DNA of 64,000 nucleotides from Escherichia phage ECP2301: sequence record OR880646.1; one strand, written 5' to 3'. Both the position numbers and the translations under genes were made by a program. The notes below the pieces were generated by a model, which did not search any database, was not told the origin of the DNA, and saw nothing but the letters and a program-made list of their open reading frames with translations. Shown here piece after piece: positions 15,778-62,520 of this stretch (position 1 is the stretch's first letter; each line of letters opens with the position of its first letter).

Positions 15778-15978
15778 ATGGTACAAAAATTAATGGCACT
15801 TGTTAATGCCATAAAAGGTAATAAAAAACGTATAGCTTTTACTATTTCTGCTATGGTAGGAATTTTACTCTGGAATTTTGTTTTATCACCAATTGCTATT
15901 GCTCATGGTGTTAATATTCCAGTAATTACTCTTGATACATTCGTAGATTTAGCATTTGCTTTAGTTGGGTTAATTTAA
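15778..15978 (+). CDS. small hydrophobic protein, 66 aa (plus strand)
   Basis: ATG preceded by strong SD (AAGGAGGATAT); two predicted TM helices; sits in the gp56-gp61 intergenic interval. Confidence 0.4.
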   Translation: MVQKLMALVNAIKGNKKRIAFTISAMVGILLWNFVLSPIAIAHGVNIPVITLDTFVDLAFALVGLI

Positions 15979-17003
15979 ATCTTAGCATATTTAGATAGCC
16001 GCATTTTAGCCATCAACCCTTGGGCAATATTATTTTTCATATATTCCATAATTTGTTTAGGGGTTGCACCTTCCTTTCTAATCATATCATTAACATCTTT
16101 TGATTTCCAGGGAGATTTGTCCCAAAACATAACCCTTTCTCCTGCATCAACTAATTTAGTCATTCGTTTAATAGTGTCAGGGTGACGAGGTTCATTATCT
16201 AAAACCCACACACGTCTATCTTTAAATGGAACAATTTCTAGGTCTAATTGACCGCCCGTAATAGCTATACCATTTTCAATAAAAAGTGAATCTATAGGTC
16301 CTTCTAGAACATATACATCGCCATCTTTGACTCGTTCAACTCCATAGATTTTTGTTGCCTCAGGATAAGCTTTGATAGTGATATATTTTTGAGGAGCATC
16401 TTTCTTTAATGCACGTCCTTGAAAAGACTCAGCTTTTCCATTAGCATTATAAATTGGAATAACAAGACGAGGCTCAGGTATTTCCTTTTTATATGTTCCT
16501 GGCGCTATACTATTAACTAATTTAGGCCATTCGGTTGTAAACCAAAGATATTTCCATTTATCCTTTGGAATACAACGAGCTTTTACATATTTTATAATTG
16601 GATGGTCTTCCGCCAGTTTATCTAATCTAATGCATGACGGAAGAGATTTAATTATTTTCTTCTCAGGTTGTTTAGGAAGTTCTTTAGGTTTTTCTACTGG
16701 ACGACTTTTACCTTTTTCTTTTCTTATTTCAAAGATATACTCACGATATAAATCAGGTTCAAACTCCTTTAAATATATTCCGATTGGTGCATGATAGTTG
16801 CAGTTATAACAATGAATATTTCCTTCATTATTATCGCCATAATACCATCCACGGGCTTTATTTTGATCGGTTTTTGAATCTCCACAAACAGGGCATCTAA
16901 ACCGCAATTTAAAAGTTGAACTATTATTTACTTGTGTGAATTTAGGTAAATGAGCTAATGCACGGTATGCAAACTCATTATCAATCCAAGGTATTGATGA
17001 CAT
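15975..17003 (-). CDS. 61: DNA primase (zinc-binding domain plus TOPRIM), 342 aa
   Basis: CPVCGD...HCYNC zinc-ribbon; 342 aa as T4 gp61; ATG start. Confidence 0.92.
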   Translation of the reverse strand: MSSIPWIDNEFAYRALAHLPKFTQVNNSSTFKLRFRCPVCGDSKTDQNKARGWYYGDNNEGNIHCYNCNYHAPIGIYLKEFEPDLYREYIFEIRKEKGKSRPVEKPKELPKQPEKKIIKSLPSCIRLDKLAEDHPIIKYVKARCIPKDKWKYLWFTTEWPKLVNSIAPGTYKKEIPEPRLVIPIYNANGKAESFQGRALKKDAPQKYITIKAYPEATKIYGVERVKDGDVYVLEGPIDSLFIENGIAITGGQLDLEIVPFKDRRVWVLDNEPRHPDTIKRMTKLVDAGERVMFWDKSPWKSKDVNDMIRKEGATPKQIMEYMKNNIAQGLMAKMRLSKYAKI

Positions 17004-17005
17004 TT

Positions 17006-17170
17006 TTACTCTTCTTTTTCTTTAGATTCCTCTTTTTTCTTTTTAGGAATCTGTTCAGGACCTTTATTTACTACAGCGCCTGACGTTGTTCCAGTGGAGA
17101 TATTTTCAGGATTACCACCTGAATCTCCAGCTACCATATCTTCTTTGATAAATTCTTTATATGTTTTCAT
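17006..17170 (-). CDS. small protein with capsid-targeting-like N-terminus (MKTYKEFIKE), 54 aa
   Basis: Hand-translated, below track cutoff; fills the gap exactly between the 17172..17798 stop and the gp61 start. Confidence 0.35.
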   Translation of the reverse strand: MKTYKEFIKEDMVAGDSGGNPENISTGTTSGAVVNKGPEQIPKKKKEESKEKEE

Positions 17171-17171
17171 A

Positions 17172-17798
17172 TTAACCTCTATTCATAAAAGCATTAAAAA
17201 TTTGGTCATCAATAGAAACATCTACTTTAGACTGTTTTTCTGATGGTAATTCATATCCACATATTACAATTTTGTGATCAATATCAAAATACACAGAAGC
17301 AATATGATTAATGATGTTTTCAGTAAAGTCTAAATCAACATCAATATCTTTTTGACCACAGCCCAAAGGATAAATAATGCGAGTAATTCGATTATCTTTA
17401 ACAAAGATTCCACCGACATACTCTGTGCTGCGTTTAAAGTCTACACGCCGACGAAATGAAAAATATTCAGGCTCTTTATGAGCTCGGCTCATAGGACACA
17501 ACGAGTAACTAGAATAAGAGATGTCAAATCCTACGCCTTCAATATGAGCCAAAGTATCATGATTAAACCAGTTATAATCGTACGCCAAATCCATTAGATT
17601 ATAATATGTAAAAGGCACCGGATTAACGTCATTAGTCACAAGCATGTAATTAGCAACTGCTATAATTTCATTGTTTTTAACGAATACAAACCGTGATTGA
17701 TGCGAATGACCTGGACCTGCGTTTTCACGATTAATGATATAACACTGGGCACCTTTATATTTGTATGTATCTTTGCACTTGTGCATTTGATAGAGCAT
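17172..17798 (-). CDS. hypothetical protein, 208 aa
   Basis: ORF, ATG start. Confidence 0.5.
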   Translation of the reverse strand: MLYQMHKCKDTYKYKGAQCYIINRENAGPGHSHQSRFVFVKNNEIIAVANYMLVTNDVNPVPFTYYNLMDLAYDYNWFNHDTLAHIEGVGFDISYSSYSLCPMSRAHKEPEYFSFRRRVDFKRSTEYVGGIFVKDNRITRIIYPLGCGQKDIDVDLDFTENIINHIASVYFDIDHKIVICGYELPSEKQSKVDVSIDDQIFNAFMNRG

Positions 17799-18091
17799 TA
17801 TTCACCTACAACTTCAGCAATGATATTTTTATTATTAAAGTTTTTATCGCAATACAGAACATAATTATACTGCATTACACCGCCAGACTTAAGTTGTTTT
17901 TGTACCTCAGCTTTCATTTCAGGACGATCACGCTCAACGATATTCATAATATCCGCTTCAATTTGAGTTTCAACCTCAGTCTGATCTGCAGTCATAGACC
18001 ATTCACACAAATCTTTGTCATAACCCGCCATAGCAGGCTGAGCAGTACAAGAAGCCAAAGCAAAAATTGCAGCAAAAACAAATTTTTTCAT
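17798..18091 (-). CDS. sp: periplasmic protein Spackle, 97 aa
   Basis: Signal peptide MKKFVFAAIFALASCTAQPAMA; 97 aa and position in the 61-41 interval as T4 sp. Confidence 0.7.
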   Translation of the reverse strand: MKKFVFAAIFALASCTAQPAMAGYDKDLCEWSMTADQTEVETQIEADIMNIVERDRPEMKAEVQKQLKSGGVMQYNYVLYCDKNFNNKNIIAEVVGE

Positions 18092-18924: not shown

Positions 18925-20351
18925 TAAAATTTTAATTCATTCGCTAAAGCATCTAACTGAGCTCGAGCGGATTCGTTTCTTTGATAGCGATTCTGTTCAG
19001 CCTGAATCTGCTGTGAACCTGCTACTTCGTTCACTTCAGTTGGAGTAGAATCTTGTTCAATTTCTACCCATTTCTGATTTCCTTTTTGAACACCCATTAA
19101 AAACTTATTCCATTTATTCTTATCACCATATCGTGATTTGATTTGCTTAATGAGTTGTTGTTCAGCAGCTGCTAACTCCTCGGTTTCAATGACCGCAAGC
19201 ATAAAATCGGCTGTTGCTGGAAGACCGGCAGATTCCGCAATATCGCTCATGTTAACATCAGAAGAATCCCAAGCTTGCTTACCAACCTGTGCTGCAGTCC
19301 AAAGAACGGTTTCGGTTTCAACAGCCAGAGCACGCAATTCCTCTGCGATAGCTTTAACAGTTGTGTAACTATTTTCTGAATAAACTCTGATGCGGCAAGA
19401 TTTACAAATACCTAGATAGTCAACAATAATGATTGTTGGAACAAAATTCTTCTTGAGCTTTAATTCATTTAAAAGCGACCGAAATGTATTAGCGTCTGCT
19501 CCACCAGTAGGATATTGCTTAACGATTAAACGACCGAGAGTAGATTTCTCACGCCATTTTTCCATTTTTCCTTTATACTCAGCGTAAGAAATATGTCCAT
19601 CATCAATGTCATCAAGAGAAACATCAAGCATATTAGCGTCAATACGCTTAGCACAAACTTCTTCTGCCATTTCCATGGAAATGTAAAGAACATTATGTCC
19701 GAGCTGCAAATAATCTGCTGCTAATGAACACAGACCTAATGACTTACCAACGTTAACACCAGCCATTAAAACATTCAGTGTTCCAGTTTCAGCTCCGCCT
19801 TTAGTAATTTTATTTAGAATTTTGAGTTTAAATGGAACCTTACGAGCTTTATTCATATAAGATAGCCAACGTGCTTCGTAGTCATCCATCCAATCATGAC
19901 CAACGTAACTATCAAATGAAATTGATAATGCTTGGCGCATGATGTCAGGAATAGCACCTACATCTGGCATTTTCTTATTTCGTTTTTCTGGAGGAAGCTC
20001 AGCATTAGTTTGAATTTCAATTATTTTAGATGTGGCGTTAAACATCGCCCTTTGCTGAACATATTTTTCTGTTTCTTTTACTAACCAGCTGTGGTCTTCT
20101 GGAGAATCGGCTAGTTTCGAAATAAGTGTTTTTACACCAGAATATTCTGTTTCAGTAAATGAACTATTTTCTAATGCAACATTTAACGCATTAATAGATG
20201 GAACGCTATGGTACTCATTAACATGAGATTTAATTAATTTGAATGTATTTTTAGCTGGACCACTTTCAAAATATTCTGAATCCATATATGGCCAAACTTT
20301 TGAAAAATAAGCTTGATCAAATATGAGATGAGAAAGAATAATTTCTACCAC
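18924..20351 (-). CDS. 41: replicative DNA helicase (DnaB-like), 475 aa
   Basis: Walker A GVNVGKS; 475 aa; N-terminus MVEIILSHLIF as T4 gp41; start codon is GTG. Confidence 0.93.
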   Translation of the reverse strand: MVEIILSHLIFDQAYFSKVWPYMDSEYFESGPAKNTFKLIKSHVNEYHSVPSINALNVALENSSFTETEYSGVKTLISKLADSPEDHSWLVKETEKYVQQRAMFNATSKIIEIQTNAELPPEKRNKKMPDVGAIPDIMRQALSISFDSYVGHDWMDDYEARWLSYMNKARKVPFKLKILNKITKGGAETGTLNVLMAGVNVGKSLGLCSLAADYLQLGHNVLYISMEMAEEVCAKRIDANMLDVSLDDIDDGHISYAEYKGKMEKWREKSTLGRLIVKQYPTGGADANTFRSLLNELKLKKNFVPTIIIVDYLGICKSCRIRVYSENSYTTVKAIAEELRALAVETETVLWTAAQVGKQAWDSSDVNMSDIAESAGLPATADFMLAVIETEELAAAEQQLIKQIKSRYGDKNKWNKFLMGVQKGNQKWVEIEQDSTPTEVNEVAGSQQIQAEQNRYQRNESARAQLDALANELKF

Positions 20352-61030: not shown

Positions 61031-61504
61031 TTATTTGAATGATTTGACGTACTGAATAGAGCCTTTGCTATTCACGAAAGCGATTTTACCATTTTTGTTA
61101 TACATGGTAGCAGTACGCTGATAACCATAAGTTTGCTTACCAGATTGATAACCAACTAATGCAAAATTATCTTCACCCATTTTATTCTGCTTCGCGCGGA
61201 TACGTTCATGACCGTGCGCCATAAGAACCTTAGCATCGCCAGTTGAAATTGATCTACGAGTTTTTTCATCTTCAACTGTACTAACAAAGTCGTCAAATGA
61301 ATCAAATTTAGCATGAGATTTATTATACAGTTTTCCATCTACTGCATAATTATATCCCTGTACATCCATCTCAACTTCTGTACCATCATCCAATACAGCA
61401 GTGATTTTTTGACCTTTTTTAAATTTCAAAAGATCAGTAAAAGATTCAGCAATAATTTGAGAATTAATAGCTGCTTCAGTGATAAATTCTTGATATGTTT
61501 TCAT
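61031..61504 (-). CDS. phage internal protein with capsid targeting sequence (MKTYQEFITEA), 157 aa
   Basis: N-terminal 11 residues match the T4 IP capsid-targeting consensus MKTYQEFIAEA; length differs from T4 IPII/IPIII. Confidence 0.65.
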   Translation of the reverse strand: MKTYQEFITEAAINSQIIAESFTDLLKFKKGQKITAVLDDGTEVEMDVQGYNYAVDGKLYNKSHAKFDSFDDFVSTVEDEKTRRSISTGDAKVLMAHGHERIRAKQNKMGEDNFALVGYQSGKQTYGYQRTATMYNKNGKIAFVNSKGSIQYVKSFK

Positions 61505-61513
61505 GTGTTTCCT

Positions 61514-61930
61514 TTAAATGTAAATATTTTTACCGTAGTATTTATACCAGTGTGGCTTCATTAAAATTTTTTCATCGAGTCGTTGTTGACTCAATTTAAT
61601 AGCTGATTTGCATGGATTATAATCATTTTTCCATTCTGCTGGAATATCGCTGATGTCAGGAACTTCAGTATCTTTTATACTAAACCCACGTTTTAAGCAT
61701 TCCGTTATAATGTCTGATTGACGCTTTCGCAAAAATTCTAACTTATCATAAAAGAACGTAACATGACCAGAACCTAAAATAAACTCGGAAGATATTTTAA
61801 AATCTTTAACCCGTTTACCATTTGCAACATGTTTACGAACTATACCAAAAACACGCGGCAGTTCACGGTATTCTGCGATTAAATGTTGATCAGCAAGTTC
61901 AGATACTAAAGTCAAATTAATACGAGTCAT
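61514..61930 (-). CDS. denV: endonuclease V (pyrimidine dimer DNA glycosylase), 138 aa
   Basis: N-terminus [29 protein letters not shown] and 138 aa match T4 DenV as I recall it. Confidence 0.9.

Positions 61931-61989: not shown

Positions 61990-62520
<531 letters not shown>

Follow-up and report, generated by a model that had tools for sequence, protein, structure and literature searches.

Gene 61.1 of Escherichia phage ECP2301

A stretch of 64,000 nucleotides (nt) from the genome of Escherichia phage ECP2301 (sequence record OR880646.1), referred to as the window in the following, was analyzed with respect to a short open reading frame (ORF) on the minus strand, located directly upstream of the DNA primase gene 61. 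The window represents a T-even (Tequatrovirus) genome, and the ORF corresponds to T4 gene 61.1 (NC_000866, positions 18966-19130; NP_049649.1), the product of which is recorded as 'gp61.1 hypothetical protein'. Based on sequence comparisons, the deduced protein gp61.1 (MKTYKEFIKEDMVAGDSGGNPENISTGTTSGAVVNKGPEQIPKKKKEESKEKEE, 54 amino acids (aa), minus strand) is a conserved 54-residue combination of a capsid targeting sequence (CTS), a cleavage motif of the type used by the prohead protease gp21 and a segment that copies the N-terminal ~28 residues of mature gp23, the major capsid protein. Coordinates of the features considered are summarized in Table 1.

An earlier note on this DNA, which was made from the sequence alone, had described an ORF filling the gap between the stop of the preceding ORF and the gp61 start, and this was confirmed by the ORF list and the sequence. 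The stop codon of the upstream 208-aa ORF (TAA, 17174-17172) is separated from the ATG of gene 61.1 by 1 nt, and the stop codon of gene 61.1 (17008-17006) lies 2 nt ahead of the primase ATG at 17003. The note's description of the ORF as unannotated was wrong, since gene 61.1 is annotated in T4 and also in Escherichia phage e11/2, the closest relative, to which the 1-kb region around the gene shows 99.0% identity (megablast; 539 phage records match). Nor is the ORF limited to the present genome, gene 61.1 being conserved across the Straboviridae. The deduced protein matches the phrog_1823 profile over its full length (E=7e-34; residues 1-54 on positions 1-54 of 54) and is encoded on the same strand as and directly upstream of gene 61, as is characteristic of members of this family. 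The window and T4 proteins share 95% identity over residues 1-42 (tblastn), and over the whole length 2 of the 54 residues are different.

Table 1. Features of the gene 61.1 locus and of the internal-protein gene used for comparison.
Feature	Position	Strand	Description and basis
Gene 61.1 ORF	17006..17170	-	54 codons plus TAA stop, ATG start; ORF list and sequence
CTS-like decapeptide MKTYKEFIKE, codons 1-10	17141..17170	-	8/10 identical to canonical MKTYQEFIAE
I-K-E motif, gp21 prohead-protease type (hydrophobic-x-Glu), codons 8-10	17141..17149	-	Predicted cut E10/D11; aligns with gp23 L-T-E65
N-fist-like module DMVAGDSGGNPENISTGTTSGAVVNKGP, codons 11-38	17057..17140	-	Homologous to gp23; most conserved family part
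Lys/Glu-rich tail EQIPKKKKEESKEKEE, codons 39-54	17009..17056	-	Aligns with gp23 ...AVMGMVRR
GAGG Shine-Dalgarno	17176..17179	-	5 nt 5' of gene 61.1 ATG; from sequence
TATGAATA, candidate late promoter	17180..17187	-	7/8 match to T4 late-promoter consensus TATAAATA; upstream alignments, motif counts
Gene 61 (DNA primase), directly downstream	15975..17003	-	phrog_47 DNA primase, E=1.9e-106; annotation in relatives
Gene 61.2, AdfA (anti-DarT factor A), directly upstream	17172..17798	-	208 aa; Pfam PF23813, E=3.2e-136, full length
Comparator internal-protein gene	61031..61504	-	157 aa; canonical CTS (MKTYQEFITE|A); TATAAATA at 61546

Homology of gp61.1 to the N-fist of gp23

The most informative feature of gp61.1 is a segment homologous to gp23, which was missed in the earlier note. 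There, everything behind the N-terminus had been summarized as a short charged peptide; this description is valid for the tail comprising residues 39-54, whereas residues 11-38 are homologous to the gp23 N-fist. In BLASTP comparisons, residues 2-38 of gp61.1 align without gaps to residues 57-93 of gp23, with 16 of 37 positions being identical (43%, E=1e-8). Moreover, gp23 residues 59-101 match the gp61.1 family profile (E=4.2e-10), and residues 39-101 match the profile of the longer family members described below (E=4.5e-8). When the latter profile was compared to all sequences of the PDB, T4 gp23 (residues 50-101, E=9.7e-6) was the sole match. A tblastn search with gp61.1 as query also yielded a match inside gene 23 of Acinetobacter phage 133.

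The shared segment covers the last part of the gp23 propeptide together with the L-T-E65 cleavage site and the N-fist; it is here that gp21 cuts gp23 in the prohead (PMC9026906). The N-fist represents the ~25-residue N-terminus of mature gp23*, which is disordered and interior in the prohead and, after expansion, is located on the outer surface, where it touches four subunits and helps to form the Soc sites (PMC9958956). gp23 is collinear with residues 2-38 of gp61.1 (gp23 residues 57-93) as well as with the long forms (gp23 residues ~50-101), and both gp23 and gp61.1 carry an L-x-E-type site and the motifs GD.G, NI..G..SGA and GP. Unlike gp23, gp61.1 possesses no HK97-fold body, and the homology is limited to an N-terminal segment of 37-50 residues. 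Since the Pfam family Gp23 (PF07068) gave no match, the labels 'major capsid protein' and 'major capsid domain-containing protein' found on some gp61.1 records are misnomers for this 54-aa ORF and should not be allowed to spread through the databases.

Recent gene conversion from gene 23 was considered as the source of the similarity and rejected, as 56 of 111 nt are identical, with third positions (11/37) at the random level. Furthermore, co-evolution of the N-fist sequences was evaluated for six genomes. Identity between the two proteins was 0.403 within the same genome vs. 0.387 across genomes, a difference reached by 8 of 720 permutations, with gp23 being near-invariant and the signal originating mainly from phage RB43. 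This signal was treated as ancestral similarity, RB43 gp23 being nearer to the gp61.1 consensus. The gene 23 N-fists of RB43 (L038:40371-41945) and phage 133 (L002:1336-2901) carry IAG, NIASG and GAITN and are nearer to the gp61.1 consensus than the near-invariant N-fists of T4, JS98, Ac42 and KPV15; they may still show what the segment looked like when it was duplicated. A search of a large protein database for homologues of the gp23 N-terminus returned fragments only.

The N-terminal decapeptide resembles capsid targeting sequences

The canonical CTS, MKTYQEFIAE, is enough to direct foreign proteins into the T4 head (PMC8442874), and the first 10 residues of the internal protein IPIII are sufficient for encapsidation of a foreign protein (PMC9026906; PMC8442874). 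Mutagenesis of IPIII revealed that residues 4 and 7 mainly govern targeting, while residues 8 and 10 govern processing, which is blocked by Asp at position 10 (PMC9026906). The window gp61.1 carries Y4 (F in T4), F7, I8 and E10 at these positions. It accordingly displays the targeting determinants of CTS-bearing internal head proteins (positions 4 and 7) and, as far as can be judged from the sequence alone, the determinants of gp21 processing (positions 8 and 10).

A six-frame scan of the 64 kb for the pattern M[KR][TS][YF].[ED][FLIV][ILV].[ED] yielded two matches, namely gp61.1 and the internal-protein ORF listed in Table 1. Gene 61.1 and the internal-protein gene agree in 27 of their first 30 nt, including every synonymous position, and the flanks of this match are at background level (12 of 40 and 8 of 30 nt identical). 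The two genes thus look as if they shared a CTS cassette. In phage JS98, five ORFs of the internal-protein type start with MKTYQEFITE, MKTYNEFIAE, MKTYKEFIAE, MKTYNEFLNE and MKTYQEFIKE, and the decapeptide of gp61.1 is 9/10 identical to both MKTYKEFIAE and MKTYQEFIKE; each residue of MKTYKEFIKE is therefore found in some natural CTS. The resemblance to the CTS of T4 internal proteins noticed earlier withstood these comparisons, given 8 of 10 identities to the canonical decapeptide, the residues Y4, F7, I8 and E10 and only one further occurrence in the window, and on sequence grounds it is regarded as genuine and not due to chance. It was also considered whether, genome by genome, the N-terminus of gp61.1 covaries with the CTS of the internal proteins; this idea was rejected because the internal proteins of JS98 are canonical and its gp61.1 has drifted, and because the N-termini of Krischvirus and Potts1 types are single-copy.

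The internal-protein gene of the window adjoins denV (61514-61930) and the lysozyme gene e (61990-62484), and its late-promoter motif is located inside denV. In JS98, the corresponding denV-e-tRNA region (56-82 kb) contains at least five CTS-type ORFs. The annotation is that of an internal head or virion protein for two of these and only that of a hypothetical protein for two others (orf114 and orf135), and the fifth is without a matching annotated feature.

A conserved cleavage motif of the prohead-protease type

The earlier note had also pointed to an I-x-E site of the kind cleaved by the prohead protease. At the sequence level this site is present (I-K-E10), and its motif is nearly universal in the family. 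Among 125 non-identical family members, a Glu is located 0-3 residues ahead of the MVAGD anchor in all 125, and the P3 residue is L, I, M, V or F in 124 of them (L 87, I 17, M 13, V 4, F 3; the remaining one is C). The P2 position is occupied by 16 different residues, and insertions of 2 aa regenerate the motif (KLNE, KLTE). In the long forms there is a further conserved site, [IL]-T-E-S, in which the Glu never varies. The pattern seen in the family, with a conserved hydrophobic residue at P3, free variation at P2 and Glu throughout, is what a maintained gp21-type site would look like. For mass spectrometry (MS), tryptic digestion of gp61.1 would yield the peptide EDMVAGDSGGNPENISIGTTSGAVVNK, and cleavage at the predicted site would give the semi-tryptic peptide DMVAGDSGGNPENISIGTTSGAVVNK.

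Short and long forms of the gp61.1 family

Short forms of 51-63 aa are encoded by Tequatro-, Dhaka-, Gapriver-, Jiaoda- and Krischvirus members, the Kosakonia/Enterobacter group, Klebsiella Potts1-like phages and an Aeromonas phage. Long forms of 150-166 aa are encoded by Karamvirus, RB43 and Ac42, and named relatives were found in Salmonella, Yersinia, Serratia and Citrobacter phages. The family is characterized by an invariant core with a Lys/Arg-rich tail behind it; the core reads [LIMV]-x-E-(D/E)-M-V-A-G-D-x-G-G...N-I-x-x-G-x-T-x-G...G-P. The long forms (phrog_2086; RB43 ORF029c, Ac42p058, KVP40-type, Karamvirus) occupy the same locus upstream of the primase gene and share the C-terminal module with gp61.1, i.e., [LIMV]-x-E, MVAGD..., GP and the Lys/Arg tail, but possess a helical N-terminal domain (N-domain) of ~100 aa where the short gp61.1 has the 10-aa CTS. 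The window gp61.1 aligns to phrog_2086 with residues 8-53 on positions 109-154 of 156; the N-domain is absent, and the protein is not a long form.

Structure prediction by AlphaFold gave a predicted template modelling score (pTM) of 0.19 for the short form, i.e., no stable fold, and gp61.1 is accordingly predicted to be a small disordered peptide. For the long form, per-residue confidence (pLDDT) values of 74-86 were obtained for residues 10-70 of the N-domain, which is modelled as helical with moderate confidence, and values below 50 for the N-fist-like part. Foldseek comparison of the long-form structure with BFVD retrieved uncharacterised homologues only, and the PDB search yielded nothing significant. 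With 1,868 cluster representatives at E<=1e-3, the phage family of the N-domain is very large; it is modular and has no function or solved structure on record. Members of this family (P0116-P0264; loci L032, L034 and L036) occur alone with the N-fist/Lys tail or are fused to other domains, namely a small beta domain ('...GVPIYEAxH..TGxxIYVT..DI') and, additionally, a basic C-domain ('FxVPxxxFRRFxxGRxKYxRWK').

Conservation within the family is lowest in the tail, which is variable in sequence yet always Lys/Arg-rich. In the window, its last codons are located directly 5' of the primase ATG, where the ribosome-binding site of the primase gene is expected. A T6-type variant (P0002, 62 aa) ends with a different tail, KKKKRNLKKKKSKNVINTLD, which is still Lys-rich. 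A one-A deletion in the A-run of the window at 17033-17038 (codons 45-46) would give exactly this tail, and the ORF then overlaps the gene 61 start. Since the tail is Lys-rich in both frames, its composition, and not its sequence, is suggested to matter.

Conservation and selection

Conservation of the ORF in relatives had been named beforehand as a check and was observed on a broad scale, with 1,396 phage records encoding a similar peptide (tblastn). Hosts of these phages include Escherichia, Klebsiella, Acinetobacter, Aeromonas, Enterobacter, Yersinia and others. In comparison to diverged homologues, the ratio of nonsynonymous to synonymous substitution rates (dN/dS) of gene 61.1 was 0.08-0.26, with synonymous sites being saturated. 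Gene 61.1 is a real gene under strong purifying selection. An RNA element at the locus was considered and rejected, as Rfam gave no match and a folding z-score of -2.6, as obtained here, is nothing unusual for coding DNA. Scans of Pfam and NCBIfam identified no family for gp61.1 or the long forms, and for gp61.1 no Pfam family was found even at E<=1.

Expression signals

The region upstream of gene 61.1 was compared for 21 loci, with a background density of ~0.13 TATAAATA motifs per kb. A perfect late-promoter motif TATAAATA is located 21-29 nt 5' of the gene 61.1 ATG in 9 of the 21 loci, which belong to four groups (JS98-like, VR25-like, Kosakonia-305/CIP9-like and Klebsiella Potts1-like). 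It is positioned behind two different upstream genes and represents essentially the sole such motif in these 5-kb loci. In T4, gene 61.1 was assigned to the RNA-seq class 'early RNA', together with ipI, ipII, ipIII, gene 40 and hoc (PMC9697503 supplement). Since the internal-protein genes share this class, the RNA class of gene 61.1 is no argument against a role in the head.

Proposed role of gp61.1 in head assembly

Based on the features described above, it is tentatively proposed, at somewhat less than even probability, that gp61.1 is a prohead-targeted peptide processed by gp21, i.e., a small head-assembly substrate. It would represent a free-standing gp23 segment spanning the prohead-protease site and the N-fist, to which T-even types would have added the CTS of internal proteins. 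The CTS would carry gp61.1 into the scaffolding core of the assembling prohead; in phages encoding long forms, the ~100-aa helical N-domain or the gp23-like segment itself may do the targeting. gp21 would then cut after the hydrophobic-x-Glu motif (I-K-E10), as it does in gp23 after L-T-E65, and a ~44-residue fragment of 4.6 kDa (DMVAGD...KEE) would be freed, which might either persist as a minor internal peptide in the head or leak out like scaffold fragments. Targeting, cleavage, presence in the virion and any role after injection are thus features that we infer for gp61.1.

With the T4 proteins IPI, IPII and IPIII and other CTS-bearing head proteins, gp61.1 shares the MKTY.EFI.E decapeptide ending in a hydrophobic-x-Glu gp21 site and, with ipI-III, the RNA-seq class. 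Unlike these proteins, its cargo would comprise only 44 residues, is acidic and is itself a capsid-protein fragment. Moreover, its gene resides in the replication cluster and not in the hypervariable internal-protein loci, is without a perfect late promoter here and has a drifted or absent CTS in other genera, and its encapsidation is a prediction. Retention of a small acidic gp21 product in the head would have its nearest precedent in the T4 internal peptides II and VII, which are gp21 products of abundant scaffold-core proteins encoded in the head-gene cluster and stay in heads. gp61.1 differs from them in being encoded by a separate gene and in having a product unreported in heads.

Several observations weigh against this proposal. 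The JS98-type gp61.1 starts with MKSFKEVMNE (F7 replaced by V), while the five internal-protein ORFs of the same genome keep MKTY.EF[IL].E. The N-termini of Krischvirus and Potts1-type gp61.1 are unrelated to the CTS and occur once per contig, no other gene sharing them. CTS targeting is therefore not the mechanism of the family as a whole. Furthermore, the P1' residue is acidic (D/E) in 96 of the 125 members, while A or S is seen at the sites of the gp23, gp24 and internal-protein sequences examined. T4 internal proteins are described as highly basic (PMC8442874); the predicted fragment following E10 (44 residues, 4.6 kDa) has an acidic isoelectric point of 5.03, and at this size the head may fail to hold it back. 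Neither the window nor T4 carries a perfect late promoter; both have TATGAATA at the same place, and the late promoters of other lineages could equally serve the downstream primase gene. Gene 61.1 is fixed in the replication cluster beside the primase gene, and distant N-domain members are encoded in modules for replication and nucleotide metabolism (genes for ribonucleotide reductase (RNR), RNase H, exonuclease and DUF7207 proteins). No virion proteomics record of gp61.1 was found, and it has never been reported in heads. It was also undetected in a time-resolved whole-cell proteome of T4 (PMC9697503 supplement), for which it has to be considered that gp61.1 offers just about two MS-friendly tryptic peptides.

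Alternative interpretations

Among the alternatives, the possibility that gp61.1 mimics the gp23 N-terminus in the cytoplasm, acting as decoy, competitor or regulator outside the prohead, is considered unlikely. Its targets could be GroEL/gp31 delivery, free gp21, for which gp61.1 might serve as pseudo-substrate or buffer, or a host sensor of capsid protein. The robust homology to gp23 residues ~50-101 is compatible with such a role, as is the report, cited in PMC3012670 (refs 12-14), that the gp23 N-terminus targets fusion proteins to GroEL. Host defences sense Gp23, CmdTAC doing so via a SecB-like chaperone (PMC11618068). In addition, the acidic P1' residue could make gp61.1 a poor substrate or an inhibitor of gp21, its RNA is early and precedes bulk gp23, and the T4-type neighbours AdfA, spackle and Dmd have functions in counter-defence or host interaction. 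On the other hand, gp23 residues 57-93 are not known to have a partner of their own, and the gene occupies one fixed locus in phages of very different hosts, unlike accessory counter-defence genes. The CTS cassette and the late promoters are also left unexplained by a cytoplasmic function. A decoy directed at defence via CmdTAC or Lit was down-weighted, as a CmdC-binding decoy is expected to trigger CmdTAC and not to block it, and as the Gol/Lit determinant, located at gp23 residues 93-122, is downstream of the shared segment. Alternatively, gp61.1 may serve the replication module through translational coupling, as part of the gene 61 ribosome-binding site or as a primase-helicase partner, with the capsid-like sequence being historical baggage; this is judged improbable. 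The gene is located directly upstream of gene 61 in T4, e11/2, RB43, Ac42 and myPSH1140, the same order appears in the KVP40/phi-pp2 gene table, and on a metagenomic T4-like contig it precedes an unannotated 345-aa ORF, which is presumed to encode the primase since it comes after a gene for a DnaB-type helicase. The stop of gene 61.1 in the window lies 2 nt from the primase ATG and its last codons at the position of the primase ribosome-binding site, and relatives of the long-form N-domain are found among RNR, RNase H and exonuclease genes. However, the tight junction is confined to the T4 type: RB43 has a gap of 150 nt, Ac42 and myPSH1140 have one of ~40 nt, and in the Aeromonas phages and Krischvirus the two genes are separated by one or two ORFs. 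Moreover, selection acts on the peptide, most strongly in the N-fist-like core, whereas the tail on the primase side is least conserved, and the cluster also contains head genes, e.g., gene 40.

Two further interpretations assign the function to the N-fist-like core itself. That gp61.1 acts as a diffusible stand-alone capsid latch regulating or completing shell maturation, with the CTS and the N-domain as interchangeable delivery modules, is rated as decidedly improbable; such a latch might fill N-fist docking sites left empty beside gp24 vertices or the portal, or titrate gp21 or the scaffold to time gp23 cleavage and expansion. Docking of a free N-fist on the shell, at N-fist sites without a gp23 subunit to fill them, e.g., beside gp24 pentamers or the portal, or modulation of expansion or Soc binding, appears very improbable. 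In favour of docking, the segment contacts four neighbouring subunits in mature heads and contributes to the Soc sites, the description of gp24 includes N-arms only (PMC9958956), and within the family conservation is highest in the N-fist-like core. Against these points, the idea is purely inferential, cleavage inside the prohead would leave the peptide at the wrong face of the shell, and identity to the real N-fist is only ~40%. Moreover, we know of no unassigned density in published maps of the T4 head. Finally, gene 61.1 might be a remnant without function, left behind when gene 23 was partially duplicated and open only by chance. Such a remnant would fit the small size, the lack of a known phenotype and the missing detection in proteomics, but it is hardly credible in view of the low dN/dS values at saturated synonymous divergence, retention of the ORF across genera and hosts, the Glu of the cleavage motif in all 125 members, the gene's own Shine-Dalgarno sequence and its own late promoter in four lineages. 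This explanation is effectively refuted already by the selection analysis.

Implications for T4-like phages

Gene 61.1 is already known and annotated; its CTS-plus-N-fist architecture and the link to the long forms are undiscussed in the searchable literature, where queries with its name, accessions, locus tags and peptide strings retrieved gene tables only. T4 head assembly is among the best-studied morphogenetic pathways, and the CTS is an engineering tool for capsid loading. Should the proposed role in head assembly be correct, gp61.1 would be a new, atypical member of the CTS-bearing, gp21-processed head proteins. The prohead inventory would gain a component, a CTS cassette would have been captured outside the hypervariable internal-protein loci, and a gene conserved at one locus in T4-like phages of many hosts would receive a function. 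It would also follow that the N-terminus of a capsid protein can be duplicated as an independent gene. If the head assignment fails, gp61.1 would be of interest as a cytoplasmic mimic of the capsid N-terminus made before the capsid protein, with relevance to chaperonin delivery or capsid-sensing defences.

Genomic neighbourhood

On the minus strand of the window, the genes 41, dmd, 61.4, sp, 61.2, 61.1 and 61 follow each other in the same order as in T4. With spackle (17798-18091), dmd and AdfA, this region represents a T4-type neighbourhood rich in genes for counter-defence and host interaction. At its 3' end, gene 61 shares 4 nt with a 66-aa hydrophobic, membrane-like ORF of the opposite strand (15778-15978, plus strand), which corresponds to the hypothetical protein e112_035 of e11/2. 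Regarding capsid genes of related phages, JS98 carries two tandem copies of gene 24, encoding the capsid vertex protein (L052:3205-5769).

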